Source of the DNA: Chloroflexota bacterium
GTDB lineage: Bacteria; Chloroflexota; Dehalococcoidia; Lucifugimonadales; JADFKI01
Assembly (NCBI GenBank): GCA_027623195.1
Contig: JAQBUT010000002.1
Coordinates: 1 to 64,000 of the forward strand
Reading direction: 5' to 3'
DNA: 64,000 nt
Shown: in pieces, positions 3,488 to 14,124 of the stretch
Layout: every line of letters starts with the position of its first letter
How positions within the stretch are numbered: the first letter of the stretch is position 1
Made by a program: the position numbers and the translations under genes
Notes under the pieces: generated by a model
Database searches by the model: none
The model's input: only the letters and a program-made list of their open reading frames with translations
Told to the model about the DNA's origin: nothing

Positions 3488-4759
3488 CTACTCCCACTCC
3501 CACTCCATAACGCCGAATCGTACGGCATCGCCCGACATTACCCCGGCCTCTTCCAGAGCCCTGACTATCCCCGTGCGCTGCAAATGGCCCAGGAACTGAA
3601 TTCTGGCGTTCCAGTCCTGCTCATCCAACATAGCCGCGATACGGGCTACTCTGGGCGCCTCAACTACGAAGACATTACCCTGCTTGTTGATCTTAATGGG
3701 CTCCCGCCTTGGTCGTGGTCTCAGTACGGGTATGTTGTTTATATCGATCTCGATTTTTGTAGTAGCGTCCCGAAGCTTGGTTTCCTGCAGGACCTCGTAG
3801 ACCTTATTCAGGAGGTCATCTACGCCCTCATGCGTGGCGGCAGATATGACGAAAAGCGGCTCGCTATAGTCTTTGAACTGTTCCCTAATCTCTGCCTGTA
3901 GCTCACGCACCTCGGTAATATCCAACTTGTTTATGGCGATGACCTGAGGCTTGCTGGCAAGATCTTCGTTGAACTGGACCAGTTCCTGATTAATCTTACG
4001 GAAATCGTCCAGTGGGTCCAGCGCCGAGCCGTCCACCATATGAACCAGCACACGGGTCCTCTCGATGTGCCTCAAGAAGTCGTGACCCAGGCCAATCCCC
4101 TCGGAGGCGCCTTCGATAAGACCGGGGATGTCTACCATGACGAAGGTGTCGCGAAACCTCTCAATAACGCCAAGCACGGGCTCCAGCGTTGTGAACGGGT
4201 AGTTGGCTATCTTGGGCCTCGCAGCGCTCACAGAGGCCAGCAGGCTGGACTTCCCGGCATTGGGCAGTCCTATGATGCCTACGTCTGCCAGAAGCTTAAG
4301 CTCTAGTCGGACGCGAAGCTCCTCGCCTAACTCGCCCTCCTCAGCCAACAGAGGGTACTGGTTTGTCGAAGTGGCGAATCGGGCGTTGCCTCGACCACCA
4401 CGGCCACCCTTGGCTATGATGATGGCCTGCCCCGGCTCAGAGAGGTCAGCTAACTGGTTGTTCGTGTCAGCCTCCCACACCTGAGTGCCCACTGGCACAG
4501 GTATCTGAATATCCTCGCCGTTCTTGCCGTGCTTGTTTGCTCCCTCGCCCCTACCGCCGGGGGAACCCTCGAACCTCCGATGGTATCGGAACTCCAAAAG
4601 TGTAGTCACGTTCGGTTCGGCCACGAGGATGATGTCTCCTCCGCGACCTCCATCTCCGCCGTTAGGCCCACCACGCGGAACAAATTTCTCGTGACGGCCG
4701 CTAACGATTCCGTTACCACCGTGGCCGGATATCATGTGGATAAATACTTGATCAATCAT
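3488..4759 (-). CDS. obgE: GTPase ObgE/CgtA
   Basis: Gly-rich Obg fold (GGPNGGDGGRGG), GLPNAGKS, YPFTT, DIPG, NKLD, SA motifs, C-terminal OCT domain. Confidence 0.98.
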   Translation of the reverse strand: MIDQVFIHMISGHGGNGIVSGRHEKFVPRGGPNGGDGGRGGDIILVAEPNVTTLLEFRYHRRFEGSPGGRGEGANKHGKNGEDIQIPVPVGTQVWEADTNNQLADLSEPGQAIIIAKGGRGGRGNARFATSTNQYPLLAEEGELGEELRVRLELKLLADVGIIGLPNAGKSSLLASVSAARPKIANYPFTTLEPVLGVIERFRDTFVMVDIPGLIEGASEGIGLGHDFLRHIERTRVLVHMVDGSALDPLDDFRKINQELVQFNEDLASKPQVIAINKLDITEVRELQAEIREQFKDYSEPLFVISAATHEGVDDLLNKVYEVLQETKLRDATTKIEIDINNIPVLRPRPRREPIKINKQGNVFVVEAPRVARIAAMLDEQDWNARIQFLGHLQRTGIVRALEEAGVMSGDAVRFGVMEWEWE

Positions 4760-5060
4760 TTTATATTCTAATAATACATAGTAATAATGCCGTGGATACC
4801 GGGGATTCGGCCTTATTGCTACTCCTTAGCGATTTGGGTCCAGAGCCTTGTGTTGCCAATGGTCTCCCTTTTAGGGTAGTGCCGTACTTTACATATGTAT
4901 TGTAAGTTTAGCATGTGTGAGGGGTGGACAGTGCAGGGACACCTGAGGATAAGTAGCCGGACCTGCCTCAGCGCGATATCTCACCCAAAAGTAGTTCAAT
5001 AACTATCCACCATGCAGCAATGTTATCCACTAAAATCGGCGGGTTATCCACTTCTGTTCC
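4735..5060. promoter_or_regulatory. probable chromosomal replication origin (oriC): DnaA boxes plus AT-rich DnaA-trio/unwinding element
   Basis: TGTGGATAA 4735-4743 (perfect), CGTGGATAC 4791-4799, TGAGGATAA 4944-4952, CTATCCACC 5003-5011, TTATCCACT 5023-5031 and 5044-5052; minus strand GTATCCACG-GC-ATTATTACTATGTATTATTA at 4768-4799; dnaA lies about 3.7 kb away. Confidence 0.8.
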
Positions 5061-5122
5061 CCGGGCCTGTTTATTCTTTGTTTAACGAAAGTCTAGTAAA
5101 AGTGTTCTGATTTTTGGAAAGG

Positions 5123-7414
5123 TCAGCCCTCGTCGGAGTCGAGCTGAGCCTCCAACGCATCTGCCTCTTCGTACCGCCCGAGCGCGCGGTAGGTGTTGGC
5201 CAGGTTGTTTCGACTGCCGAGGGTACTGGGGTGCTCCGACCCAAGAACGCGCTCCCTGATCTCAAGGGTCTCCTGGTCCAACTTCAGCGCTTCGTCGTAC
5301 CTGTCCAACTGCTGGTAGTCGACTGCCAAGTTGCTTCGACTTGTGAGTGTATCGGGATGCTCCGGCCCAAGAACGCGCTCCCTGATCTCAAGGGTCTCCT
5401 GGTCCAACTCCAGCGCCTCGTCGTTCCGCCCGAGCGCGCGGTAGGTGATGGCCAGGCCGTTTCGACTGGCGAGAGTGTCGGGATGCTCCGGCCCTAGAAC
5501 CTGCTCCATAATTTCTAGGGTTCCCTGGTCCAACTCCAGCGCCTCGTCGTTCCGCCCAAGCGCGCGGTAGTCGTTGGCCAGGTTGCTTCGGATGCCGAGA
5601 GTGTCGGGATGCTCCGGCCCAAGAACGCGCTCCCTGATCTCAAGGGTCTCCTGGTCCAGTTCCAGCGCCTCCTCGTATCGCCCAAGCGCACCGTAGGTGT
5701 TGGCCAGGCCGTTTCGACTTGAGAGGGTACTGGGGTGCTCCGACCCGAGAACGCGCTCCCTGATCTCAAGGGTCTCCTGGTCCAACTTCAGCGCGTCGTC
5801 GTATCGCCCAAGCGCACCGTAGGTGTTGGCCAGGTTGTTGCTGAGCCAGAGCAGGTCGTTCTGGTCTTCCTCCAGCGAAGATTTTCCGGCTGCCCGGATA
5901 TGCGTGTGGTGTGTGACCTCCCTCCGTAGCGCGCCATGATCGGTTTTAACAATGGCGATGAGCCTTCGATTACACCTGGCCACGGCCAGAGTCACCGCAC
6001 CCTCCTCATTAGTGGCGGCTATGGCGGCAGCGGTCAAGGCGTGTAGCCTAAAGCCTTCATCGGGTACTGAAAGGACGGAGCGTTCCATACATAGCCTAAC
6101 CAACTCGGTGAGGCCATCACCGTCGCGGCCCGTCAATGCAGCCAGCAACTCGCGGCTCACAGGCGCGTCCGCTATGTATCCCAGAGGGGGAATGTCCGCT
6201 CTTGCGTCGTCGGGCAGCGCATTCAGGGTGCCGGCGATGGTGGCGAACACGCCTTCCTCTCGTGCAATAGCGGCATGGCCGAGCGCCGTCTGGAAGGCCC
6301 TCAACTGTATGGGGTTTGGCACGGTTCGGAGCTCTTTCAGCAAACTTTCAGGAGTATGCTCCCACTTCAGCCGCGGGGCCAGCATTTCCAGAGCCATGGG
6401 AAGGTAGCCGACGGTTTCCGCTATTTTGGGCAAACACGCGTCGGCCTTGTCGGTGCTACTGCGAGAGCACAGCAACTCAACGGCGGCGTTGTTGTCGAGG
6501 ACGGCTAGGGGCAGGAACTTCGCAAATGTCGGCAGGTGTCCGGCGTTACCATCGCGAGTAGTAAACAGTAGGGGAACTGATCCGGCCAACGGCGCCAACT
6601 CTCCGACCATTCTTAATGTAGTAATGTTGTCTACGATCCACAGGGTGTCGCTCGGAAGGGCGGTCAGCTTCTCGGTTACGTCCCTTGCGACGTCACCAGG
6701 AGGCCGGTCCCCGATCTCCACACGCAGATCAGGGGCCAGGGCGACCAACGTCTGCTCTGCCGTATCGCCCGCAGCCGTCCAGAAGCCGTTACGCTTGGGG
6801 TCGTGGCTGTACTCCGCCGCCAACTGCGACTTGCCGAAGCCCGCTCCGCCAGACAGCACGACGATCTTGTTGTTTTCTGTAAAGGCCTTGGATATATCGT
6901 CGAGTACTGACGCACGGCCAAAGAAATTGTCGCCCAGGCTCAAGGGCCTTCCTCGCCAGTAGGAGGGCTGTGTATCGCTTGTGGAGACCGCCGGGGTTTG
7001 TTGGTAAATGTTAACGACGTCCGCATTGGCGGTGACCACGCCGCCCTCCACGGCACTGCTCTGGATGTTTGGCCCGCCGACGTTGGCCTGCCTGCCACCT
7101 TCCGCAGTAACGTTTACGTTGCGCTGGTGACCTGAGACGATGTCGCCTTGTATTGTACCGACCCGGATATTGTCCCTGGTTACGCTAACCTGCCCACCAT
7201 TATTGTCCACCATGGCAGCAGGAGTTTTATCATTCGTGTTGCGTTTAACGAAGGGCCATATCGCTCCGGCGAGGACGAGGGCGACCCCAACGAAGATCAT
7301 TGCGGGCGCAACCCATGGTAGGAAAGGAGGATTTTCGGCCAGCAGTATAGGCAGCCCTCCGCTGGCCAAGGCTATTCCAATAGGGATTAAGGCCGCAGTC
7401 TTGCTCATCACCAA
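5123..7414 (-). CDS. NLR-like STAND protein: 2 TM helices, low-complexity beta segment, NB-ARC, TPR repeats
   Basis: Walker A GGAGFGKS, Walker B LWIVDN, LFTTR sensor, GYLPMAL, RLH; C-terminal 42-aa TPRs (LGxEHPxTL); hydrophobic N-terminus. Confidence 0.9.
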   Translation of the reverse strand: MVMSKTAALIPIGIALASGGLPILLAENPPFLPWVAPAMIFVGVALVLAGAIWPFVKRNTNDKTPAAMVDNNGGQVSVTRDNIRVGTIQGDIVSGHQRNVNVTAEGGRQANVGGPNIQSSAVEGGVVTANADVVNIYQQTPAVSTSDTQPSYWRGRPLSLGDNFFGRASVLDDISKAFTENNKIVVLSGGAGFGKSQLAAEYSHDPKRNGFWTAAGDTAEQTLVALAPDLRVEIGDRPPGDVARDVTEKLTALPSDTLWIVDNITTLRMVGELAPLAGSVPLLFTTRDGNAGHLPTFAKFLPLAVLDNNAAVELLCSRSSTDKADACLPKIAETVGYLPMALEMLAPRLKWEHTPESLLKELRTVPNPIQLRAFQTALGHAAIAREEGVFATIAGTLNALPDDARADIPPLGYIADAPVSRELLAALTGRDGDGLTELVRLCMERSVLSVPDEGFRLHALTAAAIAATNEEGAVTLAVARCNRRLIAIVKTDHGALRREVTHHTHIRAAGKSSLEEDQNDLLWLSNNLANTYGALGRYDDALKLDQETLEIRERVLGSEHPSTLSSRNGLANTYGALGRYEEALELDQETLEIRERVLGPEHPDTLGIRSNLANDYRALGRNDEALELDQGTLEIMEQVLGPEHPDTLASRNGLAITYRALGRNDEALELDQETLEIRERVLGPEHPDTLTSRSNLAVDYQQLDRYDEALKLDQETLEIRERVLGSEHPSTLGSRNNLANTYRALGRYEEADALEAQLDSDEG
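5150..5850 (-). repeat. intragenic 126-bp tandem repeat (five full copies plus one partial) encoding TPRs
   Basis: near-identical DNA units such as AAGAACGCGCTCCCTGATCTCAAGGGTCTCCTGGTCCA recur with a 126-nt period; boundaries approximate. Confidence 0.9.
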
Positions 7415-7517
7415 CCTCGGTGCTTGTCTGCGTGGCGTATTCGTGACGCCCGCGCCAATGGCATACAGAATACCATAAGAGAGGTTGTCGATTAAGCTGA
7501 ATGGCCCGCGAAGGCTG

Positions 7518-8576
7518 TCAGTCTGCGCTTAACCTTGCCCTGATGGCATCGCCCACCTGAGTGGTGGAGAGGCTGCCGCCAATGTCGGGGGTGGTCTGGC
7601 CCTGGCTTATGGCGTGACGCACTGCGCTCTCGATGGCTCCAGCGGCCTCGCGGTGGGCCAGGTGCTCCAGCAGCATCTTGCTCGCCATGATGGCCGCCAT
7701 GGGATTGGCTACGCCCTTGCCCAGAATGTCCGGCCCGGTGCCGTGAACTGGCTCGAAGTAGCAGAAGTTCTTCTCAGGGTTGTAGCAGCCTGTTGGGGCC
7801 AGCCCCCGACTTCCCTGCACCGCCCCGCCAATGTCGCTGAGAACGTCACCAATTCGGTTCTCGCCGACCACGACCTGCAGCTCCTCGGGCGATACCACCA
7901 TCATGTATGCCAACGTGTCCACGTGGGTGTGTATCCCCTCGATGTTCGGGTACCTTGCCGACACCTCTGCGAATACGCGGTTCCACAGGCCGTCTGGCAG
8001 ACCCTTCTCCGCCATGTGAACCCGCGTGCTGCCCTCCTGCTGGGCGTAGTTGAAGGCGAACTCCAGCACTCGCTTGACTCCCTTGTACGTGTTGTACTCG
8101 GGGCGAATCTCAACCTCGTCCTCGGTGCCGACCCTGTAGTTGCCGGCGGTCCCGAACTCGTATCCCTCGGTGTTCTCCCGGATTACCGTGAAATTAATGT
8201 CTTCAGCCGTCTTGTTTTTGAGAGGCGTCAGGTCCGGCGCTATGAGGCGACAGGGGCGGACGTTGGCAAAGAGGTCCAAACGCCGTCTCAGCCCCACGAG
8301 AACGGGCATGGCGCTGACGTCTTCCGGCGTGCGGTGGTCGATGCCCCCCGCGCCAAAAAGCGCCGCGTCAAACCTGTTGGGCAGGTCGTCTATGAAACCG
8401 TCCAGGTCCTCCGGGAAGGCCTCTCCGGTGCGCAGGTATCGCTCCGAGCCAAGGTCGAAGGTCTCGTACTCCAGCCCAAGCTCGTACTTCTCGTTGACGA
8501 CGTCCAGGACCTTCACGGCCTCGGGGACCACTTCGTTGGCGATGCCGTCGCCGGGTATTACTGCAATTTTAGCCAT
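7518..8576 (-). CDS. isocitrate/isopropylmalate/tartrate dehydrogenase family protein (divergent)
   Basis: IPGDGIA, LRRRLDLFANVRP, RENTEG, GDVLSD, EPVHG..PDI, ANPMA, TPDIGG. Confidence 0.88.
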   Translation of the reverse strand: MAKIAVIPGDGIANEVVPEAVKVLDVVNEKYELGLEYETFDLGSERYLRTGEAFPEDLDGFIDDLPNRFDAALFGAGGIDHRTPEDVSAMPVLVGLRRRLDLFANVRPCRLIAPDLTPLKNKTAEDINFTVIRENTEGYEFGTAGNYRVGTEDEVEIRPEYNTYKGVKRVLEFAFNYAQQEGSTRVHMAEKGLPDGLWNRVFAEVSARYPNIEGIHTHVDTLAYMMVVSPEELQVVVGENRIGDVLSDIGGAVQGSRGLAPTGCYNPEKNFCYFEPVHGTGPDILGKGVANPMAAIMASKMLLEHLAHREAAGAIESAVRHAISQGQTTPDIGGSLSTTQVGDAIRARLSAD

Positions 8577-8762
8577 TGGCGCAGCTCCTATGAATTTTTT
8601 GGTTCTCTTTGGACTAAAGATGGCGCGTCAATATCATGCGCGCTACTGTTTCCTTGGAGTTTACCCTATCGAGGAGGATTCATGCGGGGTAGGCGTTGGG
8701 GTCCGTTTGTAGCGAAGGGCCTGGGCCGTGACACGGGGGTGGCCCGTCACGCTGGTGGGCCT

Positions 8763-11670: not shown

Positions 11671-12354
11671 ATGAACGGCATTCATGACATGGGTGGCATG
11701 CATGGTTTCGGGCCTATCGAGATCGAGGAGGATGAGCCCGTCTTCCACCAGCCGTGGGAGGGCCGGGTATACGGCATCGTCACCACGATTCGCGACGCCC
11801 ACGATGTATATGGGCCGTACGGTTTGCGCTCCTACATCGAAAGCATACCGCCGGACCGGTATCTGGTGGCCAGCTATTACGAAAAGTGGATGCTGGCTCT
11901 GGAAAACGCCCTTTTGGCCAAGGGCTTGCTGTCGAAAGAGGAGTTGGAGGCCAAAACCTCAGAATATCTGGACAATCCCGGCGCTGCGGTGCCTCGCCGC
12001 GAAGACCCGGAAGCGACCCAGCGTGTTGTCGAAAACATCCGACTACGCCTTCCGCTGGCCAAAGACCCTGATGCGGACATCCGCCCTGCCTTTCAGGTTG
12101 GCGATGCCGTTAAGGCTCGCAACATCAATCTTCGAGGACACTCGCGACTTCCCCGTTACGTTCGAGGCAAAGTAGGAACCATAGAAAAGCTGTACAAGAT
12201 ACAGGACTTTCAGGACCATGTGCCGGAGTCGGAACAGGGTCCGCAGCCCGTATACAGCGTGCGATTCAAAGCTGAGGAGCTTTGGGGCGCCGCCGCCGAG
12301 GGTAACCAGAGCCTTTACATCGACATGTGGGAGAGTTACCTGGAGTCGGCTTAG
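11671..12354 (+). CDS. nthB: nitrile hydratase beta subunit
   Basis: MNGIHDMGG start, FHQPWEGR, SYYEKW, GHSRLPRYVRGK, YSVRF, DMWESYLE. Confidence 0.96.
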   Translation: MNGIHDMGGMHGFGPIEIEEDEPVFHQPWEGRVYGIVTTIRDAHDVYGPYGLRSYIESIPPDRYLVASYYEKWMLALENALLAKGLLSKEELEAKTSEYLDNPGAAVPRREDPEATQRVVENIRLRLPLAKDPDADIRPAFQVGDAVKARNINLRGHSRLPRYVRGKVGTIEKLYKIQDFQDHVPESEQGPQPVYSVRFKAEELWGAAAEGNQSLYIDMWESYLESA

Positions 12355-12385
12355 ACCAAGCAGGTAGGAGACACAGGAGTAATAC

Positions 12386-12997
12386 ATGAGCGGTCAGCAC
12401 CATCCCGAGCCAGAGTCCTACGCCGCCATACGCGCCAGGGCCATCGAGTCACTGTTGGTGGAGAAGGGCCTCATAGCTAGCGACGCAGTGGACGCCCGTG
12501 TGCAGGCCTACGAGCAAGATATCGGCCCGCTAAACGGCGCCAGGGTTGTGGCTCACGCCTGGGTGGATCCTGAATACCGGACCCGTCTATTGGAAAACGG
12601 CACCGAGGCCATAGCCGAGTTTGGTTACACAGGTGCACAGGGCGCCGAGATAGTGGTACTGGGAAACACGCCTGACATCCAGAACGTTGTGGTGTGTACC
12701 CTATGCTCCTGCTACCCCTGGCCGGTTCTGGGATTGCCTCCAACCTGGTACAAGTCCCACGCCTACCGCGCCCGTGTTGTTATAGAGCCCCGCGCGGTGC
12801 TCAAGGAGTTTGGCCTGGAGCTGGACGATGTCGTAGAGGTCCGGGTTTGGGATAGCAACTCGGACATCCGCTACATGGTGCTGCCTGAGCGGCCCAGCGG
12901 CACCGAAGGCATGACTGAGGACCAGCTAATGGCCCTGGTGTCCCGGGACAGCATGATCGGTGTTGCCAAGGCCAAGAGCCCTGCACAGGTAGGCTAG
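12386..12997 (+). CDS. nthA: nitrile hydratase alpha subunit, cobalt type
   Basis: metal-binding VCTLCSCYPW; Thr/Tyr variant is the Co-type signature. Confidence 0.97.
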   Translation: MSGQHHPEPESYAAIRARAIESLLVEKGLIASDAVDARVQAYEQDIGPLNGARVVAHAWVDPEYRTRLLENGTEAIAEFGYTGAQGAEIVVLGNTPDIQNVVVCTLCSCYPWPVLGLPPTWYKSHAYRARVVIEPRAVLKEFGLELDDVVEVRVWDSNSDIRYMVLPERPSGTEGMTEDQLMALVSRDSMIGVAKAKSPAQVG

Positions 12998-13169
12998 AGG
13001 CCTCCTCGACTTGCTTGAGCCTGATTTTGGGCGCAGGTTTAGCCGTTGGGCGATTGGTAGTAGAATATTAAGAACGGCAATGCATAGATTGCGCAGGAAT
13101 TGGCGAATACCTAACCCGTAAAGTTGGCCTTGGCCGAGTTCAGTTGCAATTATTGGAGGATTTAAAATT

Positions 13170-13655
13170 ATGCCCTCGTTTGATGTGGTTTCCAAGACGG
13201 ACCTGATGGAGGTCGATAATGCTATTAACGGAGTGCAACGGGAGATCACCCAGCGCTTTGATCTGGCGGGAACGAAATGTGAGGTCAGCCGGGCGGACGA
13301 CGCCCTCACCATCTTGGCGGACGATTCGATGAAATTGCGCCAGGTGGAAGACCTGTTACGGAAGTATCTTACCCAACGAAAGGTTGACCAGGGCGCATTT
13401 GAATTCCAAGAGCCACAGGACGCCACAGGGAGTAGCCTCCGTGAGGTCGTCAACATTAAGCAGGGAATCGATGGCGACTTGGGACGAAAGATAAGCAAGG
13501 CAGTTAGAGGGAACAAGCTCAAGGTTCAGGTAGCCATTCAGGGCACGGAGCTCCGGGTGACGGGCAAAACCCGCGACGATCTTCAGGCTACAATACAGTT
13601 CATTAAGGACATGGAATTGGAGCAGCCGCTACAGTACGTGAATTTCAGAAGCTAG
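13170..13655 (+). CDS. yajQ: YajQ family cyclic-dinucleotide-binding protein
   Basis: MPSFDVVS, NAIN, RFD, KLKVQVAIQG, LRVTGKxRDDLQ, PLQYVNFR. Confidence 0.95.
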   Translation: MPSFDVVSKTDLMEVDNAINGVQREITQRFDLAGTKCEVSRADDALTILADDSMKLRQVEDLLRKYLTQRKVDQGAFEFQEPQDATGSSLREVVNIKQGIDGDLGRKISKAVRGNKLKVQVAIQGTELRVTGKTRDDLQATIQFIKDMELEQPLQYVNFRS

Positions 13656-13776
13656 GCTGGCGCATTGTATCTGGGAGCCTGTGCAATACTCAGTGCCAAC
13701 GCCGCATAACCGGCATTTCACAGCCTTCACAACGGATCGTGCCCTTGGCCGTATGGACAAAATAAAGGAATCTCCT

Positions 13777-14124
13777 GTGACCGAGTCCACAGATATTCGC
13801 ATCGCCAATATGGATGAAAGCATCGCGTTGCCCCGCTCCAATGGAGAACTGGTCTTCGAAGCCCCATGGGAGGGCCGTGCGTTTGGCATCGCCGTGGCGC
13901 TCAACGAAGATGGCCAGTACGACTGGAGCGAGTTTCAGGCCCGCCTCGCAGAGGAGATCGCCGAAGCTGAGCGGACCGACGCGCCGTCCACCTATTACGA
14001 ACGTTGGTTGGCCTCTCTGGAGCGTCTGGTGCTGGACAAAGGCATGATCACCCCAGAAGAGATCGAGACGCGCATGGCCGAGTACGCTTCCGGGCAGCGC
14101 AACGACGACTGGCACCAGCACTAA
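13777..14124 (+). CDS. nitrile hydratase accessory (P14K/NhlE-like) protein
   Basis: PRSNGELVFEAPWEGRAFG, WSEF, YYERWLASLE; GTG start chosen after AAGGA. Confidence 0.88.
   Translation: MTESTDIRIANMDESIALPRSNGELVFEAPWEGRAFGIAVALNEDGQYDWSEFQARLAEEIAEAERTDAPSTYYERWLASLERLVLDKGMITPEEIETRMAEYASGQRNDDWHQH

Follow-up and report, generated by a model that had tools for sequence, protein, structure and literature searches.

An NLR-like gene of a Chloroflexota bacterium with an exchangeable N-terminal cassette and a duplicated G/N/Q/V/I-rich segment

Closest described systems

BASS motifs, as described by Dyrka et al. (bioRxiv 10.1101/2020.01.06.895854), are stretches of about 25 residues enriched in Q, N, G, V, and I, depleted in K, P, and L, and containing pseudo-repeats; in the Bell/NLR pairs of that account, the receptor is of the NB-ARC-TPR type and the motif lies just before its NOD. 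In fungi, five Fibularhizoctonia NLRs carry a BaMLKL domain, a motif, a NACHT domain, and TPRs, and the authors propose that the motif serves as an oligomer-stabilizing scaffold (Wojciechowski et al. 2022, PMC9815663). The E. coli antiphage system Bab/Agp (BASS11), as presented by Ibarlosa et al. (bioRxiv 10.1101/2024.11.07.622273), combines an amyloid-type motif, a TPR sensor, and a membrane-targeting helical effector. Avs and bNACHT STAND proteins are built in the order effector, STAND, repeat, with exchangeable N-terminal effectors and TM among the listed domain labels (PMC13581612; bioRxiv 10.1101/2022.07.19.500537); the word "amyloid" is absent from the main texts of both sources. Bacterial NLRs have been described as varied in their N-terminal effectors (Kibby 2022).

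The gene described here lies in a 64,000-nt stretch (the window) of contig JAQBUT010000002.1 from a Chloroflexota bacterium and shares something with each of these. Like the receptors of the Bell/NLR pairs as Dyrka et al. describe them, its product places a Q/N/G/V/I-rich, K/P/L-poor, pseudo-repeated segment just before the core of an NB-ARC-TPR receptor; unlike them, the segment is internal (from aa 70) rather than at the N-terminus of the NLR, doubled, and behind a hairpin that is not Bell-like, it comes without an adjacent or genomic partner, and it matches the one motif class that we profiled only weakly. With the Fibularhizoctonia NLRs, as the available text of PMC9815663 presents them, it shares a single-chain build that runs from effector through motif and NOD to TPRs, with the hairpin as the putative effector. 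The differences are that it is bacterial and NB-ARC-type, with a two-helix hairpin in place of an MLKL-like bundle, that the Fibularhizoctonia motif is common to separate effectors and short NLRs of the same genome whereas this one is not, and that a natural motif-less allele exists. Bab/Agp differs in having two genes, no STAND core, a Bell-related effector, and a function shown by experiment; Avs and bNACHT proteins differ in that ours matches no Avs or PADLOC profile, has TPRs of the kinesin-light-chain type, and lies outside a defense island. We found no bacterial hairpin-motif-NB-ARC-TPR case in the passages of the literature available to the search, and nothing of this layout in the available text of Bechon 2024 and Kaur 2021. 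As far as its sequence can be read, the protein would work like an all-in-one NLR, and it resembles the two-gene BASS systems without being a member, because its motif is internal and the partner absent.

The gene and its surroundings

The reading frame (5123-7414, reverse strand) has 763 open codons counted from a TTG at 7414, and residue numbers are given from this TTG throughout. ATG 7408 is the likelier start, giving a gene at 5123..7408 with a product of 761 aa: it stands 5 nt behind GAGGT, a word like a ribosome-binding site (7414..7418, reverse strand), and matches the three database copies, which are 761 aa long with an identical N-terminus. An in-frame GGAGG followed by GTG at aa 126 is probably due to chance because a similar site occurs at aa 474. 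A frameshift or two-product reading was set aside, a slippery heptamer being absent from the first 600 nt, as was an assembly artefact: one contig of sequencing run X2, which may be the source sample, spans 6023-7852 with zero differences.

Downstream of the N-terminus lies a STAND core of the NB-ARC type with helical and winged-helix parts (5870..6964, reverse strand; aa 151-515). It contains Walker A (GGAGFGKS, 6827-6850, reverse strand), Walker B (LWIVDN, 6626-6646, reverse strand), TTR, GxLP, and LHxLT, kept in family alignments of 18 and 28 rows; Walker A, Walker B, and the sensor-1, GxP, and xHxL motifs of the STAND family are all intact. Pfam NB-ARC scores 20.3 bits (E 3.6e-4), below its cut-off of 23.5, as do the relatives. 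The core is followed by six 42-residue TPRs resembling those of kinesin light chain, the last of them partial (5144..5869, reverse strand). In the full-length structure model, pLDDT is mostly 85-96 from residue 150 onward, and the model is confident outside aa 58-146; Foldseek matches it best to the STAND-TPR structure 6mfv (E 2.8e-13) and also to Apaf-1, CED-4, and kinesin light chain TPRs. The protein is thus modeled as a STAND fold with a C-terminal repeat sensor, and the intact NB-ARC and TPRs noted in an initial reading made from the sequence alone (the sequence-only reading) are borne out by the motifs, the family alignments, and the STAND-TPR and Apaf-1 structure matches. The profile of the FxSxx-COOH system TPR protein (NF040586) reaches 297.6 bits against a curated cut-off of 300, its best stretch lying within the TPRs, a near miss that likely reflects a shared NB-ARC/TPR type. 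No other ORF of this type was found in the genome. TPR number varies: a contig of run X5 is without three repeats (positions 5191-5597), and the P0007 cluster differs in 42-residue steps.

The N-terminus begins with two hydrophobic helices (7340..7396, aa 7-25, and 7247..7318, aa 33-56, both on the reverse strand), the second followed by a basic KR. Kyte-Doolittle 19-mer averages reach 2.05 over aa 7-25 and peak at 2.36 in the second hydrophobic stretch (aa 31-56). The full-length model folds both stretches as helices, with block pLDDT values of 72-87, in agreement with the sequence-only reading. A profile of this hairpin, run against 401 genomes, recovered only its own training members and 3 borderline matches, and no stand-alone effector combining the hairpin with the motif was found in this way. 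A stand-alone 104-aa hairpin homolog, without the repeat and without an adjoining NLR, is present in a genome of the same genus (G001, L003:1438-1752). A second match to the N-terminus in the 401-genome search was discarded as an antisense artefact containing a stop.

The gene is flanked by obgE and a gene resembling leuB or tartrate dehydrogenase (7518..8576, reverse strand), which carries no motif; the sequence-only reading had seen no adjacent effector with a matching motif, and this holds. Together with the leuB-like gene, the NLR-like gene fills the gap between obgE and dnaA, which is empty in genomes G002, G003, and G004; in G001 the contig stops at this point, and G005 has a different arrangement. 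Between obgE and the 3' end of the NLR-like gene, DnaA-box-like sites (4735..5052, no strand assigned) mark a likely oriC. The NLR-like and leuB-like genes part it from dnaA, a separation that G002, G003, and G004 lack; GC skew flattens and turns nearby (positions 4735-5052 and 5114-8750). Further along the window, at 11671-14124, ORFs resemble by eye the beta, alpha, and accessory subunits of nitrile hydratase. Among PADLOC 2023 profiles, a library that the Avs families of 2026 lie outside, only a TPR model matched the gene. The surroundings are housekeeping neighbors, not a defense island.

A duplicated segment in one exchangeable cassette

Between hairpin and core lies a segment (aa 70-138) composed to 62% of G, N, Q, V, and I, with no K, no L, and one P; the sequence-only reading had quoted it to the letter as a G/N/Q/V/I-rich stretch between the TM helices and NB-ARC. 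By composition its best 69-residue window ranks fourth among 3,972 genome ORFs (stop-to-stop, at least 150 aa). That reading had also described two pseudo-repeats: a two-fold repeat stands, at a lag of 34 residues (Z 4.54, family-wise p 0.0016 over lags 5-40 and 5,000 shuffles), whereas the register it had quoted does not (lag 18-19, Z -0.63 and 1.49). A harmonic at period 17 reaches Z 5.46, equaled in 0 of 500 shuffles. The two units, 68 residues in all (unit 1, 7106..7207, aa 70-103, with a 22-residue core at aa 82-103; unit 2, 7004..7105, aa 104-137, core at aa 116-137; both on the reverse strand) are identical at 9 of 34 residues and 52% of bases, against a codon-shuffle null of 31 +/- 4% that reached this value in 0 of 20,000 shuffles at a lag picked after the scan. 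Between the units, prefix and core are about equally alike (50% DNA identity over the 12-residue prefix, 53% over the core), and this favors a single tandem duplication of 34 codons as the origin of the segment; a fusion of effector gene and receptor gene, each with one motif copy, is disfavored for the same reason. Read in this arrangement, the two cores are linked by a Gly-rich 12-mer, N82 would stack on N116 and N101 on N135, and R98 would lie opposite D132, pairs that we presume to be like the ladders and salt bridges of HET-s.

Structure prediction gives the segment a pLDDT of about 27-45 in both the full-length and the single-sequence model, below 50 throughout it in the single-sequence model of aa 3-157; such values say little, being expected of a segment without aligned homologs. 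A four-copy complex prediction (score 0.01, mark 0.32; controls not folded) carries no weight here for or against a fold. When the segment was searched with phmmer against 1.84 billion representatives, no true homolog came up; the two matches, one a protein of Ig/PKD repeats and the other a low-complexity repeat protein, are unrelated repeat proteins. There was likewise no homolog among 3,936 candidates or in the 401 genomes, and the ESM Atlas held no usable match for the N-terminus of this protein or of its relative P0007.

The sister protein P0003 shows how the segment is distributed. Its core is identical to ours at 346 of 368 positions (94%) and its N-terminus at 37 of 86 (43%); the latter combines a hairpin homologous to ours with a Pro/Ser linker and has no repeat. 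In contigs of runs X3 and X5, both from one estuary study, position 6966 is joined to 7411 through 264 other bases, which amount to 88 codons and encode the P0003 N-terminus in place of the 444-nt cassette of hairpin, linker, and repeat (6967..7410, reverse strand). The flanks of these contigs are about 99% identical to the locus in the window (5 differences in 896 positions for X3 and 7 in 792 for X5; in the core, 55 in 1202 and 81 in 1370), and a contig of run X4 breaks at the same places, its loose end, read by hand, being the P0003 linker. The exchanged stretch begins at the start codon and ends at the first core residue: in these contigs from one estuary study, the whole N-terminal cassette is swapped in one piece at a single locus. 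The repeat belongs to one allele and has the look of an optional extra, not of the centerpiece of a new system, although the existence of an allele without the motif is no proof that the motif does nothing where it is present. The sequence-only reading had proposed that stacking of the segment drives clustering of the hairpin, a claim that the comparison does not support, since a sister allele at the same locus, with a 94% identical core, has a homologous hairpin without the segment; it had also set out what would count against it, lack of conservation of the segment being one half, and that half is what is found, the sister allele having a Pro/Ser linker instead.

The wider family gives a similar picture. 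A core search recovered 32 proteins among 7,999 scored candidates, 28 with a usable N-terminus and 4 without; these N-termini, labeled partly by eye, comprise two-helix hairpin, single helix, DUF4062, TIR-like, helical, ParA-like, and motif-only forms. The named relatives are Chloroflexota and Dehalococcoidia, the core profile finds matches in 9 of the order's 401 genomes, distant ones in two, and at least seven metagenome loci are listed, four of the seven listed being distant NTPases. A quick tree of 34 cores groups seven hairpin proteins into one clade (SH-aLRT 96), within which the double repeat occurs only in our protein: five of the seven linkers are of a Pro/Ser/Thr type without the segment, and P0007 has, by eye, a shorter beta-type stretch. 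Across the hairpin clade, what stays constant is the hairpin and what varies is the repeat. On a crude score of BASS-type composition, our linker is the highest of 31 in the family (0.68, against 0.45-0.55 for Bell motifs); four of the 31 reach the Bell-motif level, and the receptor motif of genome G193, taken up below, just misses it, so the score undercounts.

Relation to Bell and BASS motifs

The segment has the composition bias and pseudo-repeats described for BASS motifs, and one member of the NLR family sits next to a candidate Bell gene. In G193 (L036:3596-6412), a frameshifted, motif-only family member lies 58 bp before a 139-aa Bell-like gene, and the two motifs are identical at 12 of 25 residues. 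The Bell label is a putative one drawn from size, an N-terminal helix, and a weak RHIM match, no library profile having named the protein; its 17 homologs also terminate in a motif of this class, one of them with the weak RHIM match. The receptor and the Bell-like gene make up a canonical BASS-type pair in this Chloroflexota order, which wires the NLR family to BASS-type signaling in at least one lineage. The G193 pair lies between a tRNA-like region and IS-like ORFs. The Bell profile matches 2 of 401 genomes: G193, which is in its training set, and G027, where the Bell-like gene adjoins a different NLR. In G027 (L048:1501-2642), this gene has a different, longer beta-type tail and is directly followed by a broken NB-ARC-like frame that starts with a short motif.

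How close the segment comes to the Bell-motif class was assessed with a profile built from 6 non-redundant of 8 motifs in the register of G193, a register whose fit was first seen by eye. Of the 17 Bell motifs, 9 were excluded: 7 were longer by one residue, 1 was shorter, and 1 did not match. The two highest-scoring windows in the whole protein are aa 113-137 (7.0 bits) and aa 79-103 (4.4 bits), 34 residues apart, with shuffle p of 0.015 for the best window and 0.0008 for the pair. Held-out members score 46-61 bits, and P0011, which shares their motif, reaches 41 bits; among the 41,675 ORFs of the genome, at least 15 outscore our protein. In the reverse comparison, a profile of the two units places 3 of the 17 Bell proteins above the 99.9th percentile of the genome's ORFs. 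Neither repeat contains the Gly-Asp-His/Asn turn that Bell motifs conserve, and Pfam and NCBIfam hold no motif match in the segment. These comparisons weakly suggest a distant resemblance to the Bell-motif class, not membership in it.

A partner with a matching motif was sought with phmmer and three repeat profiles among 41,675 ORFs of the genome, which is 87% complete, and none was found, the best score being 29 against self scores of 105-107.5. No Bell homolog was found in this genome (G000), in G001, or in G002, while the control G193 matches, and there was no RHIM match. The sequence-only reading had allowed for a receptor signaling in trans, an option for which the motif, Bell, and neighbor searches show no visible partner. 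Two other proteins of the genome with related compositions match no named family: a 224-aa protein with an internal G/N/V/I motif and then a helical C-terminal domain (C9:110910-111584, reverse strand; L009:4911-5585), and a protein of about 218 aa with a short N-terminal helix, a G/Q/V-rich motif, and an unnamed domain (C18:7895-8551, reverse strand; L008:1396-2052). In the repeat searches the C9 protein came about 1,400th and the C18 protein 20th to 542nd; the C9 protein is the best match to the Bell-motif profile in the genome (17.9 bits), and its motif is unlike the NLR repeat.

How the receptor may work

We lean, if only a little, toward a single-chain membrane NLR-like immune receptor, one of a small Chloroflexota family, whose N-terminal cassettes can be exchanged and whose repeat is either an optional scaffold or a relic. 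The variable TPR array would bind a foreign protein; the STAND core would swap nucleotide and then form a ring, which would cluster the N-terminal hairpins, and these would damage the membrane. The constant output part would be the hairpin rather than the repeat. The segment, duplicated as a 34-codon unit and private to one allele, would be a BASS-like motif; if it folds, it would most likely stack into a two-rung beta-arch that bridges hairpin and ring and helps, without being required, as scaffold or amplifier, and it may equally be a relic. A defense role, toxicity of the hairpin, and any amyloid fold are proposed here by analogy with STAND and Bell/HeLo biology. An immune role fits less well with housekeeping neighbors and with the lack of any defense-system profile match beyond the TPR model, the hairpin may serve simply as an anchor or signal, and as a BASS-like motif the segment falls far short of the 41-61 bits of true members. 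A more elaborate form of this idea, which we hold only tentatively and think on the whole unlikely, has a single chain carry the receptor together with its effector and a double amyloid motif, with amyloid-plus and amyloid-minus cassettes as alleles and the amyloid rung as a plug-in amplifier by which a ring recruits resting receptors and clusters hairpins beyond itself.

The repeat would be essential if the ring nucleated a two-rung beta-solenoid needed for hairpin clustering, one that could spread to resting receptors. Such a switch would account for the stacked Asn pairs and R98/D132 across the two cores, for the highest BASS-type composition score in the family, and for frame and composition kept in units only 52% identical in DNA, and two effector-side repeats are also the layout of HET-s and BASS1/6 in the available accounts (Dyrka 2020; PMC7889193); we nonetheless judge it rather improbable, given that the sister allele and five of seven clade members have the hairpin alone, that 1.84 billion representatives hold no true homolog, and that both repeats miss the turn conserved in Bell motifs. 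The low pLDDT of the segment in both models, its restriction to one allele, and the variability of family linkers would be expected if the protein were a membrane-anchored STAND sensor, for defense or otherwise, and the segment a drifting low-complexity spacer without a fold. The spacers of the family are rich in Pro, Ser, and Thr, however, whereas the segment has a single Pro, neither Lys nor Leu, and a strand-like alternation, and both units fit the Bell-motif class of the family in register; we consider a neutral spacer doubtful indeed. Least probable, to our minds, is a membrane-anchored receptor that templates an unlinked effector with a matching motif: phmmer and three profiles find no such partner, and neither a Bell homolog nor a RHIM match turned up, even though the incomplete assembly leaves room for one, the C9 and C18 proteins have internal G/N/Q/V/I stretches, and unlinked motif partners have been proposed for fungi in the available text of PMC9815663.

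Coming back to the single-chain receptor with exchangeable cassettes, its interest lies in the question of why some NLRs signal via amyloid motifs and others fuse the effector directly; the scaffold role proposed for internal motifs of fungi (PMC9815663) is a hypothesis. Two natural alleles, with cores 94% identical and homologous hairpins, one with the motif and one without, would make the contribution of an internal motif directly measurable. The locus also places Bell/motif pairs (2 of 401 genomes) and hairpin-type output (9 of 401) in a Chloroflexota order in which they are rare. Should the segment prove inert, the locus would still be a tidy case of effector-cassette exchange within a population in a bacterial NLR.
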